NCBI GenBank assembly: GCA_965231145.1
Contig: OZ246420.1
Span: 480,001 to 512,000, forward strand
Reading direction: 5' to 3'
DNA length: 32,000 nt
DNA from: Candidatus Saccharimonadota bacterium
GTDB lineage: Bacteria; Patescibacteriota; Gracilibacteria; Absconditabacterales; Absconditicoccaceae
This document shows, one piece after another, positions 5,360 through 30,511 of the stretch. Position 1 is the first letter of the stretch, and every line of letters begins with the position of its first letter. A model generated the notes under the pieces. That model was not told the origin of the DNA. It saw only the letters and a program-made list of their open reading frames with translations, and did not search any database. The translations under genes were made by a program, and so were the position numbers.

Positions 5360-8300
5360 TTACTCCATTTTTAGTTTGGCAATTTCAAGCTTCATCATAG
5401 TGATCTTCTGTTTCACTTCGTCCAGTTTTTTTTGTTTCTCTTCTACGACGTTTGCAGGAGCGCTGCTTGAGAAACTTGGATTGGTAAGCATATTTCTTAG
5501 TCCCTGCATATAATGTTCTTCATCGATGAGCTGTTTTTCAAGATTTGCAAGTTGCGTTTTTTTGTCGATAACAACAAGTGCTTTGAGTCCAATTTTCATG
5601 TCGATAACCATCGCAGACTGATACTCTGCAGGCATCTCATCATCCTCTCTGAGGTATTCGATGTGCTCAGTTTTTACCAGATCTTTGACAAGGTTTTCGT
5701 ATGATTTTACGAAGTTGTTGAAACTGACATTTGCCTGGAGGATGATATCAGCATTTTCGTGTGGCTTCACTTTCTGTTGTGAGCGAAGGTTACGCCACTC
5801 AGTAATCATATCCATAAGGATAGAGATCTTAAAGTCTTTTGGTGTTCCTTCAAGTTCTGTTGGCCACGATGCAACACAAAGCAGTCCTTCAAAGTGCATA
5901 TGTTGCCAGAGTCTTTCAGTCACGAAAGGCATGTAAGGATGGAGTAATTTAAGGATAGTTCCGATCGCATACAAAAGCACCTTATCGGTATAGTCTGATT
6001 TTTCACGCTTTGATATTTCGATGAACCGGTCGCAGAAATCTCACCATACCATATTTATCACGCTTTCCCCAAACTGACCAAGATGATAGTCTGCGAACAT
6101 TCTTCCTGACTCCTCTATGATCATATTGATCTTGCCAACCATCCACTTATCGAAGTGATTGAGCTTATCCATATGTTTCGTGATGTCCTCTTTGATGGCA
6201 TCGAGATCGAGATGAATTTCTTCACTACCCTCTTCAAAGATTTTTGTCGAAACAAATCTTACTGCATTCCATAATTTATTTGCAAATCTATAGTAGTAGT
6301 CCACTTTCTGTTCACTGTAATTCAAAGGATTTCCTGGGGTTGAGCCAACGATAAGTCCAACACGTAATGCATCAGCACCGTATTTTTCTATTACTTCCAG
6401 TGGATCCATAGCATTTCCTAATGATTTCGACATCTTGCGGCCTTTTTCATCAAGCACGATACCATGGAAATAGACAGTCTTGAAAGGCATGCTATTCATA
6501 TTTACGGCTCCCATCATCATCATCCTTGCTACCCAAGGAAAGAGGATGTCGTTTGCAGTCTCAAGAAGATCATTTGGATAGTATTCTTCAAGATCAACTG
6601 TTTTATCAGGCCAGCCAAGTGTTGAAAATGGCCATAGCCCTGAAGAAAACCATGTATCAAGTACGTCTTCTTCTTGGTGAAGAACAGTGTCTTTGAGGCC
6701 AGCAAGTGATACAAAATCGAACGTATACTGATCTTTGTCTTGTATGATCAAGAGAGAATTGTCGAGCAGATCAATGAGACTTTCCATCTCCTTGATATTG
6801 CTCTTGTCGCTGAAGATCTGTTTGAGTTCTTCTATCTCCTCTTTGAGATCAATATCTTTGAGTTCGTAGACAGACAAATATGTATCAAGTACCCTACCTC
6901 TGTGTTCTACGATACTCTGTGATGAAAGCACATCGATAAGTTCTTCGATACTAAACTTCTCTGGCAGACGAGAATCAGCTACGAGATTGAATATGATAAG
7001 TGATAATAATAATCTTTGCTCTTTGCTCTTTGATTTTTTAGTTGTTGCGTAAGCAACGATAGAGTCTTCATCAAAAACATAGTTATTTCCAGCTGGATCC
7101 TTCCATACTGGTATGCGATGTCCCCACCAGAGCTGACGAGAGATACACCAAGGCTGTACATTATCGAGCCAGTTGTGGAAGTCATGAATAAATCTTTCTG
7201 GATAGATCGTTACTGCTTTAGTGTCAATTGCTTCAAGCGTTTGAGCGGCCGCGTCTTTTACGTCAACGAACCACTGTCTTGAAAGTAATGGCTGGATACG
7301 AGTTTTTGATCTTTCGCAGTATGGAACATTGTGTACGTGCTTTTCTACTTTTTCCAAGTTGCCGATCTCTTCAAGTTCGGTTATGATATTGTCATACACG
7401 TCAGCAATCTTTCTTTTCCCATACACCGGACCCGCAAGCTCAGTGAGAAATCATTTTTTGTCGATAGCAAATCTATCCATAGGAAGACTATTTCTCATAC
7501 CAATTTCATAGTCTACCGGATCATGTGTTGGAGTTATTTTTAACGCTCCTGTTCCAAAAGTCATATCTACTGCAGCATCTGCAATCACGGGAATTGGTTT
7601 GTTGATGATAGGGATAAGAACATTTTTCCCAACAATCTTTTTATATCTTTTATCGTGTGGACTTACTGCAACTGCAACATCAGCAAAAATTGTCTCAGGA
7701 CGAGTCGTAGCGATGGTGATACTATCACCTTTCCCCTGGATAAAGTACTTGATATAGTAGAGATTTCCTTCTTCCTCTTTGTGGACTACTTCGCTGTCCG
7801 ATACCACGCTCTGTGTACCTACCGATCGATTTACTATACGAGCTCCCTCGTATATTTTTCACTGTGTGTACAAATTAGAAAAGGATTTTCTTACTGCACG
7901 TGAAAGTCTTTCCGACAGCGTAAACTCTTCGCGTGACCAGTCAAGCGATGCTCCCATTTTCTTTGTTTGCGAGATGATGGTATTTCTTGATTTTTTAGAC
8001 CAATCCCATACTTCATCTATAAATTTAGCACGACCAAGCTGCTCTCTGTCTTTTCCTTCTTTACGAAGTTTATCTTCTACCTTTACCTGTGTTGCAATAC
8101 CCGCGTGATCTGTAGCTGGAAGCCAAAGAGTCTTCTTGCCATTCATACGCTGATAACGAGTGACTATATCTTCCACCGTAAGCATAAGTCCATGTCCTAC
8201 ATGGAGTACTCATGTTACATTTGGCGGAGGGAGTGTTATCATAAATCTTTCTGAAGCATCAACCTTCTTTTTGCCTTTGGTTGATTTCTTGTTGCTTTGA

Positions 8301-8389
8301 TAGTCCGGATTAAATACTCATTCTTTTTCCCACTTCTGGTATACTTCATGCTCACTGGTGTGGTCATACTTCTTTGGAAACTCTTTCAT
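5360..8389 (-). CDS. valS: Valine--tRNA ligase (1009 aa, 5 in-frame UGA)
   Basis: Track fragments 5360-5980, 6041-7426, 7451-7807 and 7859-8185 are all in one frame with 8186-8389. PPPNVT-G-VLHVGH has TGA at 8210-8212. KMSKSLGN, a C-terminal coiled coil, and MVW-G-DFCD (TGA 6038-6040) are present. Length is 3030 nt = 1010 codons. Confidence 0.95.
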
Positions 8390-8581
8390 ACCGTGTTGTC
8401 ACGTTAATGAAATAAAACGCTTATTCATATATGTTTTGCCTGTTTTTGCAACACGTAATTCTATATTATTCAATCAAAAATAGAACATGGAAAATAATTT
8501 TCTATTTTTTATCTTTCATTGGAGTATGGAAATTTGGGATAATGAGTTGCTTTTAATGATGAAAGCAGTATCAAAAACCAT

Positions 8582-20080: not shown

Positions 20081-20150
20081 AGTTTTCTCATCAAATCTAA
20101 ATACGTTCTAATTATACGGAAAATAACCTTTTTGGGCAAATTTTAGATAC

Positions 20151-20400
20151 AAAAAAACTCCTCAAGAAAACCGGCTACAAACCCGTATTTCCCTGAAGAG
20201 TCGCGTGGAAAACCACACTTTCCCTGTAATTTTACTATTAAGGGGGACCGCTCCGATCGCCTTTTTATTCCAAATAGATAGGTCGTAACCTATTATTTCC
20301 ATGGTTAAGCCATGGCAGTTATAATATGTAAACATATTGACCGGGAATCACACCGAGGCGCTGCAACCATTTTTTATATAGTGTAAGGGGAACGATAAGT
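20151..20400 (-). ncRNA. Structured RNA of unknown class, or cis-regulatory leader of the udk-like gene
   Basis: No ORF. Hairpins are CCATGG/CCATGG (20299-20315), ATAGGT-UACG loop-ACCTAT (20278-20293), and GCGTGG/CCACAC (20203-20218). A closing 7-bp stem (20158-20164 with 20194-20200) is followed by U7 on the minus strand. G-U pairs work only on the minus strand. The element ends about 70 nt upstream of the ATG at 20080. Confidence 0.45.
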
Positions 20401-20430
20401 TATTTCTCTTTATAATCAATATTTTCTTAT

Positions 20431-20463
20431 AAAAAAAGCCTCCTCCAAGCATGCCTGGAGGAG
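20431..20463 (-). terminator. Intrinsic terminator ending the GC-rich RNA
   Basis: CTCCTCCA (20440-20447) pairs with TGGAGGAG (20456-20463). On the minus strand GC plus U7 follows (plus-strand A7 at 20431-20437). Confidence 0.7.
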
Positions 20464-21023
20464 ATTTATAGATTATCTGTTTGTTTTGTTGCCCGGGTGG
20501 CCGGTGCCCGCCTGCTCGGCAATATGCGAGTTGTGATCGGTGGCTGTGGCGCTCTGCGTGGGCGAGATTGAATTCGTTGTTTGGTAGCTACTTTGGACTT
20601 AAGATAGTCCAAAAGCCAGATGCATGCAAGTTTTTCATAACTGCTGTGGTTTTTGGATGTTAACTTTGACAGAGGATTTCAAAAGTTTTTCGGCTTAGTG
20701 TTTAGCGTAGCTACGTGGGGGATAAGATCCGCCCAAAGCCAGTTGTCTTTTGGTCCATTGAGCTTTTTAAGCTGAACGGCACCGTACTCTTACGACATTT
20801 CTCATGGAATGCGAATTGAGAGTTTGGTGATTAATTTTTTTTACCGAGTTTTTGCCTTGTGGCGCTGGCCAGCTTTCCCTATGGATTGCTGCTGCCGCCC
20901 TGGCCCTGGTAGTGATGTGCCAATGTTATGATATTCTTCTGTGCGCTGCCATAGTTGGGCGCCCCTCGGCTCTGGGCCGGTAACATTTTTACGGTTGCCA
21001 TAAAAGTGGTTTTTATTTGTGTA
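20464..21023 (-). ncRNA. Large GC-rich structured RNA; candidate RNase P RNA (weak motif resemblance) or an unclassified large RNA
   Basis: About 560 nt with no credible ORF. Runs such as GCCCGGGTGGCCGGTGCCCGCC occur in an AT-rich genome. It has its own promoter (21030-21057) and terminator (20431-20463) on the minus strand, and many local helices. On the minus strand, in 5'->3' order: AGGGAAAGCUGG (20869-20880), GAGAAAUGUCGUAAGAG (20787-20803) and CGCUAAAC (20700-20707). Confidence 0.4.
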
Positions 21024-21029
21024 CCAGAA

Positions 21030-21057
21030 ATACTACTCCATGAAATAAGAAAGTCAA
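21030..21057 (-). promoter_or_regulatory. Putative promoter of the GC-rich RNA
   Basis: On the minus strand: TTGACT (21057-21052), a 16-nt spacer, then TAGTAT (21035-21030). It lies directly after the aspS terminator. Confidence 0.45.
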
Positions 21058-21060
21058 TAC

Positions 21061-21099
21061 TTTTTTTATAAAAAGAAAAAACGCTCTTTCAAGCGTTTT
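21061..21099 (-). terminator. Intrinsic terminator of aspS
   Basis: AAAACGCT (21078-21085) pairs with AGCGTTTT (21092-21099) around a 6-nt loop. A T-rich run follows on the minus strand. Confidence 0.65.
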
Positions 21100-21168
21100 G
21101 GGATGAATCTATTTAGATGATAACTCCTTATTTTATTCGTAATTCGTCATTATTAATTAGTAATTATA

Positions 21169-22479
21169 TTACGGTGTAATCCTCGTCGTATCTCTTGGGA
21201 AAAGTTCTGCTTCTTTAGCATTTTCCAGACCGATAAGCTTCTGAATAAATCTTGCCATACCGAAACCAAAACCTCATGTATCAGCCATCCCGTATTTGAA
21301 CGCATCAAGGTAGTGCTTGAGCCCAGGATTGTTCGGATCAAGTCCTCTATCTTCTATCTGCTTGATAAGCTTATCATGATTTACTTCACGTTGTGTGAGT
21401 GTGGCAAGCTCTACTCCTCTAAATAGCAGGTCTGCTCTGTCTGTTGCTTCAGGATTTTTAACGCTTTGATGATGATAGAACTTTGCATCAGACCATGGAA
21501 ACTCTGTGATAAATACCATTTCTGATCCCCAGTTTTTAGCGCTGTATTCACAGATGAATCTCTCCTCTGCTGGTACAACATCAAGCTCTTTTGTATAGTC
21601 TTCTCCTGTTTCTTTGAGCATCAGTTCATGCAGCTCTTTTACTGTAATGCGTGGAAACTTTTCTGCTAAGACCGGCTTTACTGCTCCAAGTGAAGTTAGC
21701 TGCTCTTCATACTCTGCCCATGTTTTATCTATGACAAAATGCATGAGCTGTTCAGCAAATGAGAGCACGTCATCCATAGAGTCGATAAACGCCATCTCGA
21801 CATCGAGCATAAGGATTTCTGACATATGTCTCGATGTATTTGACTTCTCTGCTCTGTATGCTCTTCCGATCTCGTAGACTCTCTCATAGACTGCTGACAT
21901 GATCTGCTTGTAGAACTGTGGACTTTGCGCGAGATATGCATCTCTTCCGAAGTAATCAAGCTTAAAAACCTCTGCTCCTCCTTCCGTAGGAAATCCAATA
22001 ATCTTTGGTGAATTGATCTGTGTAAACTCATTTTTATCAAAAAACTCTCTCATATATTTTTCCACGATCGCAGCAGTCTTGAAAATCTTCATCTGTCTTG
22101 GATGACGAAGCGCGATGACTTTATTATCATGGATGGTTTCACCATCTGCATTGACTGTATCTTTTGAGATATCAATCGGACTTGGATGTGCTACTGCTCT
22201 TATTACCTCAACAGTTTCTCCTCCTATCTCAGCTCCATACTTACTCTTTGGAGCATCTTTCACGAGTCCATGTACTTTCAGTACTGTTCCAGTAAGGCAA
22301 CCATTGAGCTTAGTGATCTCTGCTTCATTTTCCAAAACAATCTGCATAAGACCTTGTCTGTCTCTGATGATCACAAATGCAAGTGTTGCACCTACATTTC
22401 TAATAGTATGTAACCATCCTCTTACAGTTGCCTGTTCTCCAATATGATGTTTTAACTCTCCTGATAATAATGTTGCCAT
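21169..22479 (-). CDS. aspS: Aspartate--tRNA ligase, archaeal/type-2 short form (436 aa, 1 UGA)
   Basis: QSPQFYKQ, YRAEKSNTSRH, and C-terminal YGMADT-G-GFGFGMARF...ELFPRDTTRITP, with TGA at 21274-21276. The FPRD..R..P ending favours AspRS over AsnRS. Confidence 0.85.
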
Positions 22480-22513: not shown

Positions 22514-22852
22514 TTATAGGATTTTGATCATTCATCATAATATTTTACTAATTTGAATCGCTTTATCAAATAGCTTATTATAAGTATCTTCTGTAATATA
22601 GTGGAGTATTCTAGCACTGTATATCATTGAACGATATTCTCAACAGGATCACTTAGCAATATACAAAAAGCGTCTATATTCTGTATCTCACTGTCTTTCA
22701 AATCCTTCAGCAATATTATTTGCTACGGATACAATAGCTCTTTGAATCTGATCTTTAAAGCTATAATCTTTGTTGTCTCTAAAAAGAGTATAAGTTTCAT
22801 CTACTCATTCTTGAGCTTTTTGCCGATACAATAAATCTTCCAGAGCCTTCAT
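22514..22852 (-). CDS. Four-helix-bundle protein (23S rRNA IVS-protein family) (112 aa, 6 UGA)
   Basis: Invisible in the standard-code track. [31 protein letters not shown] matches the NIAEG...F..IA.GS..E signature. Confidence 0.7.
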
Positions 22853-28859: not shown

Positions 28860-28887
28860 AATAACAAAGATAAGAGATATTCTTACC

Positions 28888-29097
28888 CGTCGGATATACC
28901 CACGTCTCCTCTTTACGATCTTGAGGTATGATAGGAGTGTTAGTATTGAGCTGGAGTCGCTGTGATGTGCGCGACAGCGAAATACTTCGTATGCAATACA
29001 TGAGGGTTACACAGGCTCGTAGTGCTATATCCGACTAGACCCTTTTGGTTACTTTTTAGGGATATGCTAAAAAGTGACGCCCCTCCGGCAGGAGAAA
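28888..29097. repeat. Left arm of long inverted repeat (148-bp perfect core plus imperfect extension and a 29-nt hairpin insertion)
   Basis: 28888-29035 is the exact reverse complement of 30318-30465, checked in 10-mers. 29036-29046 and 29076-29097 match 30307-30317 and 30281-30303 with indels. 29047-29075 is unique to this arm. Confidence 0.9.
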
Positions 29098-29182: not shown

Positions 29183-30238
29183 ATGTTTATTATCTCTCGT
29201 TTTTGCCTTTTCAATGTCTATATTTATCTTGTTACTCTTTTATGCGCCCTTATCAAACTATTACATATGCATAAATTTTCTAAAATTGCTTTCATCGCTA
29301 TAGGTCTTTTCGGGTGATTCGCTGGCATCTCATCTGCAACATCGCCTACTATGGTATCATGAGTTCCCATAAAAACATTTTGTGCTTCGTATAAAAAAGA
29401 AGTCGAGACGAAGTCTATCGCCACTTTGCTGGCGATAAAGATAAAAGAAAAGCCTTTTCAAAAAGCAGCATTGCTCAGACAGTATCAAACATTTACGTTG
29501 CTTGGAAAACAGCATTGTAAAATAAGTACTCCACCAAAAGTAATTACTCCTGTCACCAAAGCTGCTTCACCGACGAGTATAGATATATCAAATAATAAGC
29601 CGATTATTATTACTACGACTGCAAACTACCAAACGCCTGCTGATTATTTTAAAGGATATGAGATAAGTGATATTATTGGCATTACGCCCGAACAAATGCA
29701 AATAACGCTCCAGAGGATAGAAAGAGCAAAGGAGATCTATGCAAATATTATTGAGAAGTTTATCGAGAAGGAGTGGTTTGCGTTATCGGATAGAAATGAG
29801 ATGGTAGGGAAGATTTGATTTAGGTTCTCGCAAAATTGTAATGAGCTTGATGGTAAGATCCTTGTAAGACAATGGTATGATAAAAATCATAAGCCTATAA
29901 AAAATGAGCTCGTCAACCTGTTTATTACTATTAATCTCTGCTTCCAGCCGATCTACGAAGATGGCTATGATAAGTTTTTAGAGAAGATTATCTATCATGA
30001 ACTAGGTCATTACCTAAATTATTTTCATGACGAAGACGATTCATGATTTAAATCTCTCTGCTGGGAAGGAGATACATCTATCTGTTCAAGCTCTCAGTTT
30101 ATCACGAACTATGCATCTACTGAGCCAGATGAAGACTATGCAGAATCATTTGCCTATTACGCACTCAATGACCGGCCGGTCAGCAACGATCTTCTCCAGC
30201 AGAAAATAGATTACTTTAGAGCAAAGTTTCCTAAGTAA
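29183..30238 (+). CDS. Membrane-anchored HExxH zinc metallopeptidase-like protein (351 aa, 4 UGA)
   Basis: The track ORF starts at TTG 29426, but the frame is open back to ATG 29183 (GGAGA at 29166-29170) through 2 TGA, which adds a hydrophobic N-terminus. It continues through TGA 29816 and 30044 to TAA at 30236-30238. HELGH is at 29996-30010, with EDYAESFAYY downstream. Confidence 0.65.
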
Positions 30239-30280: not shown

Positions 30281-30465
30281 TTTCTCCTGCCGGAGAGGGC
30301 GCCTTCGAAAAGGTCTAGTCGGATATAGCACTACGAGCCTGTGTAACCCTCATGTATTGCATACGAAGTATTTCGCTGTCGCGCACATCACAGCGACTCC
30401 AGCTCAATACTAACACTCCTATCATACCTCAAGATCGTAAAGAGGAGACGTGGGTATATCCGACG
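30281..30465. repeat. Right arm of long inverted repeat
   Basis: See the left arm. The core is 30318-30465. The unit is itself bounded by GTCGGATATA (30318-30327) and TATATCCGAC (30455-30464). Confidence 0.9.
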
Positions 30466-30511
30466 AATAAGAAGATACATAAATATAACAAATGATTTCT
30501 AAAGCCATGTT

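Follow-up and report, generated by a model that had tools for sequence, protein, structure and literature searches.

Background

RAPP-like arrest peptides include SecM, ApcA, ApdA/ApdP and the RQH family (PMC10987492, PMC10951233). Their arrest motifs are RAGP in SecM, RGSP in the SecM of Mannheimia, RAPG in ApcA and RAPP in ApdA/ApdP, with RAPT, RSPP and HAPP as variants, and the peptides are recognised by their position in an upstream open reading frame (ORF) of a sec or yidC gene, by an N-terminal signal or transmembrane (TM) segment and by a spacer of more than 30 residues (PMC10987492). Here we analyse a stretch of 32,000 nucleotides (nt) from a Candidatus Saccharimonadota bacterium (GTDB family Absconditicoccaceae; contig OZ246420.1, positions 480,001 to 512,000), hereafter the window, and in it a unit of ~590 nt on the minus strand, located between the AspRS gene (aspS) and a PRK-family kinase gene. 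A preliminary description had proposed that this unit is a large, structured, non-coding RNA, possibly a divergent RNase P RNA. On balance we favour another reading, in which the unit is a lineage-specific, fast-evolving RNA with several short ORFs (sORFs) that is most likely translated, and in which the label 'non-coding' is probably wrong. Two of the frames are very short paralogous copies (micro-ORFs), and their family resembles the RAPP-like arrest peptides in that the peptides are variable except for a short conserved motif, with Arg-x-Pro, at the C-terminus or close to it.

Results

A predicted transcription unit in the aspS-PRK gap

The gap that holds the unit is the largest of the window (1088 nt). 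The borders of the unit follow from promoter and terminator scans, and its features, from 5' to 3' on the minus strand, are these:

21030 to 21057, minus strand: promoter, with the -35 box TTGACT (21057-21052), a 16-nt spacer and the -10 box TAGTAT (21035-21030); promoter scan.
20431 to 21023, minus strand: transcribed unit of ~590 nt (A 34%, C 27%, G 20%, U 19%), bordered by promoter and terminator.
20879 to 21001, minus strand: probable sORF1, 40 codons, MATVKMLPAQSRGAPNYGSAQKNIITLAHHYQGQGGSSNP, recognised by first-ATG position and a shared motif; it contains the conserved block CGCCC (20961-20957).
20850 to 20898, minus strand: irregular 35-nt hairpin (20898-20864, palindrome GCUGGCCAGC), GCC-ACAA-GGC and the conserved block CAAGGCAAAA (20859-20850); present in three homologues.
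20767 to 20805, minus strand: tentative sORF2, 12 codons, MRNVVRVRCRSA, recognised by its counterpart in L036; it overlaps the 18-nt block GAGUACGGUGCCGUUCAG (20789-20772) and a hairpin (20779-20755).
20711 to 20758, minus strand: micro-ORF copy 1, MDQKTTGFGRILSPT, ending in UAG; ORF listing and substitution pattern.
20708 to 20741, minus strand: two-tier stem-loop 1, outer helix UGGCU/AGCUA, inner helix UGGG-GGAU/AUCCCCCA, ending in the palindrome GUAGCUAC; z of -2.9.
20588 to 20638, minus strand: micro-ORF copy 2, MKNLHASGFWTILSPK, ending in UAG; ORF listing and substitution pattern.
20585 to 20618, minus strand: two-tier stem-loop 2, outer helix UGGCU/AGCUA, inner helix UUUGGACU/AGUCCAAA; z of -3.9.
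20431 to 20464, minus strand: intrinsic terminator (20464-20439 plus T-run), an 11-bp stem UCUCCUCCAGG/CUUGGAGGAGG followed by U7; terminator scan.

For comparison, neighbourhoods were fetched through AspRS and PRK-kinase homologues, giving 44 loci (cited below as L001 and so on) that together with the window amount to ~391 kb, the informative ones coming from about eight lineages. We refer to the DNA between aspS and the PRK-family kinase gene as the island. The promoter block TATTGACTT is found again at the matching position in six related loci, and an A-rich, UP-like stretch lies upstream of the promoter in the window. Promoters account for most blastn matches among the islands, and promoter-like sites as such are not enriched over shuffled sequence (5 found, 4.0 expected). 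The homologous terminator hairpin, UCCUCC...GGAGGA, is present in L001, and the sequence of the unit is 100% identical in three metagenome assemblies with identical AspRS (L009-L011); runs ERR4405439-41 have the locus in identical form. At 46-51%, the GC content of the unit region exceeds that of the window (38%) and of its other intergenic gaps (25-31%), and the region is also the most A+C-rich stretch of the window's minus strand.

Much of the preliminary description is borne out by these data. The -35/-10 pair beyond the aspS terminator, the strong terminator at the 3' end and the high GC content are all there, as are the hairpins and both GTAGCTAC palindromes that it listed, the local hairpins having a high pairing probability. 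Judged by its signals, the unit is an independent, separately transcribed and unannotated RNA. Where that description went astray is in its statement that the region holds no credible ORF. No ORF of more than 48 aa with a start codon occurs in the unit region, genetic code 25 included, but there are ATG ORFs of 40, 12, 15 and 16 codons that have counterparts in relatives, the predicted peptides of the unit being MATVKMLPAQSR..., MDQKTTGFGRILSPT and MKNLHASGFWTILSPK.

Coding-type constraint in two paralogous micro-ORFs

The window contains an internal direct repeat, each copy of which is a complete ATG-to-TAG frame. When all ATG ORFs of at least 8 codons were listed in all islands, a family emerged whose members share their two ends, MK.. 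at the start and ..[RT]-I-[LR]-[SAD]-P-[TGK]-stop at the end; the frames are 15-16 codons long in the window, and the peptides of the family range from 7 to 27 aa. The relatives of the window copies are these:

L001: MKQLSHKRKGRADWAILDPT.
L036: ...MDRSKDHQQIQTLKKAMTRIRSPG, C-terminal RIRSPG.
L005: MKNKLNRPKGRHYQITSCQLRIRAPGK, with RIRAPG / RIRAPGK.
L006: MKKTALCRGSPRQY, with CRGSP.
L003: MQQTIKCRGSPRKK..., with CRGSP.
L013: MKKASKCRGSPY..., with CRGSP.
L038: MKRIKKAPT.
L039: MKQLHPT.

C-terminal motifs among these relatives are RIRSPG, RIRAPGK, CRGSP and ILDPT. Within the six-codon motif, pairwise differences are distributed over the three codon positions as 28/27/46, and 23 of the 51 differing codon pairs are synonymous, against 0 of 55 and 6 of 56 in the shifted frames. 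The variety of codons used for the same residue is considerable, with AUC, AUA and AUU for Ile, CCC, CCA and CCU for Pro, CGG, CGA, CGC, CGU and AGG for Arg, and UCC, UCA and AGU for Ser. The comparison of RIRAPG in L005 with RIRSPG in L036 illustrates this well, since the third position differs in five of the six codons, one of which (AGG/CGT) also differs in the first position. The CRGSP variants of L006, L003 and L013 vary synonymously too (UGC/UGU, CGG/AGG, UCU/UCC), and so do the N-termini MKN.L and MKQL (AAA/AAG, CAA/CAG, AAC/AAU, CUA/UUG/CUC). Each of the seven A[CA]GTAG sites found in the islands closes an ATG ORF of at least 6 codons, the shuffle null being ~0.2 per site. On these substitution patterns, the micro-ORF motif is under coding-type constraint.

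Local hairpins and the case for a purely non-coding RNA

In the window, each of the two stem-loops spans the 3' half and the stop codon of its micro-ORF, with an inner helix of 7-8 bp. An equivalent two-tier stem-loop occurs in L001 and a looser version in L036; single-sequence z values are -2.9 to -3.9 for the two window copies and L001, and -1.8 for the looser L036 structure. Over these four instances, 84% of cells are paired; shuffled sequences reach 70%, and sliding the partner strand gives 29-48%. Both sides have changed in 6 of the 13 pairs. A hairpin forms over the CRGSP codons as well, in L006, L003 and L013, and in L013 U-A takes the place of C-G. The peptide motif is kept in L005, where there is no hairpin, and in L036, where folding is weak (z of -0.5 and -0.7), and it is therefore not a by-product of a palindrome.

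Further upstream, the window, L036 and L001 each have a hairpin directly 5' of CAAGGCAAAA, its sequence differing each time. Pairing between the two GUAGCUAC palindromes, which had been put forward earlier, is possible in that it appears in the minimum free energy (MFE) structure; it is not a conserved interaction, because L001 and L036 have one copy each. A loose 'hairpin + GUAGC' descriptor was discarded as a search tool, being unspecific (24 of 412 GTAGC sites passed).

These structures bear directly on the possibility of a purely non-coding RNA, in which GC-rich hairpins and A/C-rich single-stranded linkers would form a protein-binding scaffold or sponge, or a trans-acting regulator (compare the CrcZ/CsrB-type sponges and S. 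aureus RNAIII), and the ORFs would be incidental. The local hairpins are indeed stable and partly covarying, the distance from CGCCC to CAAGGCAAAA is nearly fixed at 99-103 nt, the composition is strongly skewed to A and C, the palindromes GUAGCUAC (in two copies) and GCUGGCCAGC could pair within or between molecules, and L001 keeps a related nucleotide motif in a broken ORF. We nevertheless regard this explanation as unlikely. The signature of synonymous substitution is specific to the frame, the peptide motif is still there in loci whose hairpin is weak or missing, and an ATG lies upstream of every ACG/AAG-UAG site. As for the fold itself, RNAalifold on the 5' domain, the only part to which it was applied, gave no supported global structure (-6.75 kcal/mol, with an unfavourable covariation term), and the MFE of the whole transcript is only modestly below that of shuffles (z = -2.4). 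Taken together, the patterns indicate two layers of constraint, one on the peptide and one on local RNA hairpins, and not a large ornate, ribozyme-like fold.

The 5' sORF and other candidate frames

In five of six lineages the unit's first ATG is located between +18 and +24 and starts a frame of 25-40 codons, for which the null is ~0.25 each. The frames of this group, represented in the window by sORF1, share the motif [GAS][AP]P ... K.{0,2}I[IDF], in which the K part follows about 10 residues on and the Ile codons vary. The leading [G/A/S]-[A/P]-P element reads RGAP in the window and L036, GPP in L001, KAPP in L006, SPP in L003 and HAPP in L013. From this recurrence, sORF1 is probably a real coding frame. 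A k-mer search with sORF1 gave no candidates. We treat sORF2 as a real coding frame only tentatively, on the basis of two lineages: its L036 counterpart, MKKLMRVRCRS..., shows R/K, N/K, V/L and V/M changes together with a synonymous AGA/CGA, and its hairpin (20779-20755) is kept in L036 with a different 3' strand. The layout of promoter, sORF1, GC hairpins, one or more micro-ORFs and terminator is common to the window, L036, L001, L006, L003 and L013.

The coding properties of the genome are relevant here. TGA is a sense codon, as the window holds 51 stop-to-stop frames of at least 150 codons under translation tables 4/25 and 15 under table 11. A Shine-Dalgarno motif precedes the start codon in one of 29 window genes, the other 28 being without. 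An A-rich, unstructured stretch stands at each start codon of the unit, in keeping with a genome that makes no use of Shine-Dalgarno sequences.

A separate observation concerns two other lineages, where an independent unit with its own promoter and terminator (L039 3343-3486; L045 1357-1503, also L012 ~7650-8575) encodes a basic protein of 47-48 aa. The two proteins begin MATAKRRMDKTFRVPKNGSPQTG... and MPRINTAGTQFRTKK..., with 70% nucleotide identity over 169 nt, and start like sORF1 of the window (MAT.K ... P.NGS/PNYGS).

A variable island in one clade

The order aspS, gap, PRK-family kinase gene and radical-SAM (HemN-like) gene is retained in the closest relatives. True nucleotide homologues of the unit were found in L036/L007 (AspRS 92% identical) and in L001 (AspRS 90%), and nhmmer with the 5' domain of the unit gave E=1e-34 for L036 and E=4e-28 for L001 and no match in the other loci. 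Neither blastn nor nhmmer detected a homologue in the 23 loci of the GTDB SR1 species set, each comprising aspS with up to 5 kb on either side. The alignments of the window with L036 and L001 are collinear yet patchy, such that the sequences are barely alignable at ~90% AspRS identity, and MAFFT alignments of whole units are unreliable. In relatives with 83-85% AspRS identity the unit is replaced by other small units, and among most lineages the alignable parts are promoters, terminators and the PRK promoter block only. The gap itself measures 257 nt with one small unit in L005, ~500 nt with the gene for a 50-aa membrane peptide in L002/L008, and 0.8-1.8 kb with one to three promoter/terminator units in L003, L006, L036 and L039. 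From these comparisons, the unit is part of a variable island of small units between aspS and the PRK-family kinase gene in one SR1/Absconditabacteria clade.

A scan for the pattern CGCCC-N-ACTAYCA-N-CAAGGCAAAA(WC) returned two matches in a viral collection and three in a metagenome collection, all of them chance matches in high-GC or phage coding sequence. A phage relationship was considered and rejected, as none of 50,697 phage records was matched in a blastn search.

Two features of relatives are recorded here in their own right. The homologue in L036 is ~950 nt long, and its additional ~500 nt (L036 2450-2990), which are dense with high-probability hairpins, have no counterpart in the window or L001 and no Rfam match at E<=10. 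The 50-aa membrane peptide gene MRSLLYLIAVILIIGWLLGAFVWNASGLIHVLLVIAVISLLLGFLRRGSV, at the same aspS-PRK site in L002/L008 (5394-5546), encodes two predicted helices, and we presume that the product resembles the lmo0937-type small membrane protein family.

The turnover of the island is one of several points against RNase P RNA. The strings AGGGAAAGCUGG, GAGAAAUGUCGUAAGAG and CGCUAAAC, on which the proposal was built, do exist in the window, and with two ..CUGGCUU.. strings they loosely recall CR-I, P10-12 and CR-V. Their positions are not conserved in L036 and L001, where AGGGAAAGCUGG faces unrelated sequence or gaps in the pairwise alignments. The P4 strands of RNase P RNA (GAGGAAAGUCC... 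/ ACAGAA..GGCUUA) are not kept in relatives, and no ACAGAA-N-GGCUUA 3' strand was found, in agreement with the doubt already expressed in the preliminary description. The covariance-model searches suggested there (Infernal with the Rfam models of RNase P, tmRNA, SRP, 6S, GOLLD, ROOL, OLE and raiA) yielded nothing relevant. At gathering score no Rfam model had a hit anywhere in the window; at E<=10 with permissive filters, 20300-21200 gave nothing relevant and no RNase P, and at neither threshold was there a relevant hit in L036 or in 10 related loci. No tRNA or tmRNA was found with ARAGORN, and GOLLD, ROOL, OLE, raiA, HEARO, tmRNA, 6S and SRP had no covariance-model or ARAGORN match. Moreover, the element is undetected in the 23 SR1 species loci, and other small units sit at the same position in the close relatives L002 and L005. 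Near-complete sequence turnover at ~90% AspRS identity is incompatible with an essential ribozyme, and the narrow distribution together with this rapid turnover is incompatible with RNase P RNA; a divergent or expanded form of it is almost certainly the wrong answer. What survives of the earlier proposal is an independent unit with many local helices outside known RNA families, while the description of it as an unclassified large structured RNA holds as to the missing family and is weakened as to 'non-coding' by conserved micro-ORFs with coding-type substitutions.

Such rapid turnover among close relatives, with the unit present in some and absent in others, could also be expected of a decayed protein gene or of a selectively neutral transcribed spacer. 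This we hold to be very improbable. Decay had been named beforehand as an outcome that would overturn the RNA proposal, and a six-frame tblastn of 20100-21170 under code 25 against all related loci was negative. The 70-aa table-11 part of the longest stop-free stretch had no match when searched with HMMER against 1.84 billion representative proteins; conservation of the full stretch, 107 codons in the window, is contradicted by the collinear sequence of L001, with its 7-9 stops per forward frame. The unit has also kept its promoter and terminator, its arrangement of ORFs, its peptide motifs and compensatory changes in its stems.

Downstream units and the attenuation hypothesis

Three further elements of the gap, and the gene at its upstream end, are as follows:

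21169 to 22479, minus strand: AspRS gene (aspS).
21099 to 21078, minus strand: intrinsic terminator of aspS; terminator scan.
20150 to 20400, minus strand: U2, a second small unit with its own long-stem terminator, between the unit and the PRK promoter; terminator scan.
20139 to 20111, minus strand: promoter of the PRK-family kinase gene, TTGCCC-17-TATAAT.

Given this order, the unit might be a cis-acting leader or attenuator, translation of a micro-ORF or pausing in it controlling read-through of the terminator (20464-20439) into U2 and the PRK-family kinase gene. Nearly all lineages have a micro-ORF unit immediately upstream of the PRK gene, L045/L012 included, where aspS is not the upstream neighbour, and a micro-ORF followed by a hairpin and a terminator is the classical attenuator layout. 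However, in every lineage the PRK gene is set apart from the terminator by a well-conserved promoter of its own (TTGCCC-17-TATAAT), U2 intervenes in the window, and L001 keeps the unit though its downstream neighbour is a DAGK gene, not PRK. A role as attenuator is unlikely on these grounds.

U2 has short ORFs such as MVAAPRCDSRSICLHIITAMA and no detectable homologue in relatives. Upstream of the PRK gene, the segment AAAATTTGCC..AAAA..TTTT..TATAAT (20111-20160) retains 75-85% identity amid fully turned-over DNA, and the block AAAATTTGCC..TATAAT also occurs in L002, L003, L005, L006, L036, L038, L039 and L045; its conservation suggests a promoter plus an operator.

Other features of the window

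22514 to 22852, minus strand: gene for a 23S_rRNA_IVP four-helix-bundle protein of 112 aa (Pfam PF05635, E = 5e-29), just upstream of aspS.

This gene adjoins two genes for secreted SLH-like proteins. Four-helix-bundle proteins of the 23S_rRNA_IVP type accompany diversity-generating retroelements (DGRs). A DGR template repeat was sought and rejected, no second copy or partner resembling a variable repeat being present in the window, and no reverse transcriptase was seen among the few window proteins scanned against Pfam. Since the window has no template/variable repeat pair, the 23S_rRNA_IVP gene is not evidence for a DGR.

Elsewhere in the window, an inverted repeat of 169 nt, 98% complementary (28877-29045 and 30308-30476), flanks a 351-codon ORF (29183-30238, plus strand, code 25). 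Its arms are GC-richer than other intergenic DNA and have no Rfam match at E<=1. Possible identities are long terminal repeats of a mobile element, an invertible segment or a duplicated RNA gene.

Discussion

The reading of the unit as a fast-evolving RNA with several sORFs draws on its transcription signals, on homology to three lineages, on the shared architecture, on coding-type substitutions and on local covariation, and we infer from these that the ORFs are actually translated. Several observations weigh against it. The peptides are extremely short (7-27 aa) and variable in length, and they come from only ~6-8 independent lineages, while the C-rich composition inflates the number of Pro codons. 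Among 661,000 six-frame residues of fetched DNA there are five instances of the pattern I[LR][SAD]P[TGK]K?-stop, each of them in an island, on the sense strand and with an ATG, a count that is partly circular because the motif was derived from the same instances. L001 keeps the related nucleotide motif AUGCUGCAAAGGUAAACGAAGCC despite an interrupted ORF, and thus hints at conservation on the RNA level. Between the window and L036, differences in sORF1 are spread over the codon positions as 20/23/26, without third-position bias, and sORF1 is therefore rated as probable, with less certainty than the micro-ORFs. None of the sORFs of the unit is annotated in public protein collections, where the 47-aa protein of L039 is found, nameless. 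Lastly, there is no regulated gene downstream in the same transcript, which leaves an attenuator-like role without an obvious target.

If the balance is as we judge it, the unit would most likely be a messenger for a 5' sORF of 40 aa, possibly a 12-codon ORF, and the two paralogous micro-ORFs. The A-rich, unstructured leaders would be the likely initiation signals in a genome devoid of Shine-Dalgarno use, and this would explain the A/C-rich linkers before each AUG. Because the 3' half and the UAG of each micro-ORF lie within a stem-loop, a translating or terminating ribosome must open the helix. The Pro-containing R-x-S/A-P-G/T motif may slow peptidyl transfer or termination, as RAPP, RAPG and RGSP do. 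Pausing near the end of the micro-ORF would then hold the stem-loop open and remodel the RNA, and could thereby affect its stability, the translation of neighbouring sORFs or read-through of the terminator. Alternatively, the peptides themselves may be the products.

A bolder extension, to which we would assign only a small chance, is that these frames represent a new class: stand-alone, tunnel-length arrest micro-ORFs (R-x-S/A-P-G/T) embedded in covarying stem-loops of an abundant RNA, in epibionts belonging to the candidate phyla radiation (CPR) that lack Shine-Dalgarno sequences and have recoded UGA. Together with a 5' sORF of the poly-Pro type, they might sense translation or termination capacity (e.g. 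EF-P, RF1 or charged-tRNA status) or act as a ribosome-engaging regulatory RNA, and would not be a sec/yidC leader.

The analysis removes a tempting but wrong rnpB annotation for an SR1/Absconditabacteria genome, and indicates that a conserved multi-sORF architecture, overlooked by gene callers, sits in the largest 'non-coding' gap of this reduced genome. If the frames are translated, two unannotated families of micro-peptides would be added to a lineage of obligate epibionts or predators, RAPP-like Pro motifs would be extended to very short, free-standing ORFs outside Sec/YidC, and a testable system would be at hand for ribosome pausing in bacteria that initiate without Shine-Dalgarno sequences. 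Should they prove untranslated, the locus would remain a clear case, at a fixed chromosomal site, of a hypervariable island made up of strongly promoted small RNAs.

Comparison with known systems

Large ornate non-coding RNAs (GOLLD, ROOL, OLE, raiA, HEARO) are of a similar size range, and the unit is, like them, unannotated; it differs in lacking an Rfam match and, in the 5' domain (the only one examined in this way), a supported fold, and in its far lower conservation. With RNase P RNA (RF00010/RF00011) it has in common an independent transcript of several hundred nt, many helices and a few similar short strings, whereas it is hypervariable, restricted to a lineage and furnished with conserved micro-ORFs, and has neither a covariance-model match nor conserved P4 strands. 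Dual-function RNAs such as S. aureus RNAIII/hld, SgrS/SgrT and B. subtilis SR1/SR1P resemble it in being hairpin-rich transcripts of 0.2-0.6 kb that have a promoter and a terminator of their own, a small ORF and unpaired stretches rich in C. The unit has no sequence or structural homology to them, and its ORFs are several and much smaller.

Leader-peptide attenuators (ermCL, the cat/cmlA leaders, TnaC, PheL) share with the unit a tiny ORF with an overlapping stem-loop and an intrinsic terminator behind it, the peptide fitting the exit tunnel. The ORF, the stem-loop and the terminator of this arrangement are present here, with no gene before the next promoter; unlike these leaders, the unit has no regulated gene in its transcript and no runs of regulatory codons, and it carries two paralogous copies along with other sORFs.

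The likeness to RAPP-like arrest peptides extends in relatives to exact arrest motifs, RAPG in L005 and RGSP in L006, L003 and L013, to which RSPG in L036 may be added, and the sORF1 family carries HAPP/KAPP/GPP/SPP/RGAP. The micro-ORFs of the window depart from it with LSPT and LSPK (RILSPT, TILSPK), their Arg lying two residues further upstream. The peptides of the family are 7-27 aa long and polar or basic, without a signal or TM segment, without a spacer of more than 30 aa and without sec/yidC or another cistron downstream, the micro-ORF transcript running into a terminator that is followed by the separately promoted PRK-family kinase gene. As the other features of arrest peptides are thus missing, we regard the relationship as one of functional analogy, not of family membership.

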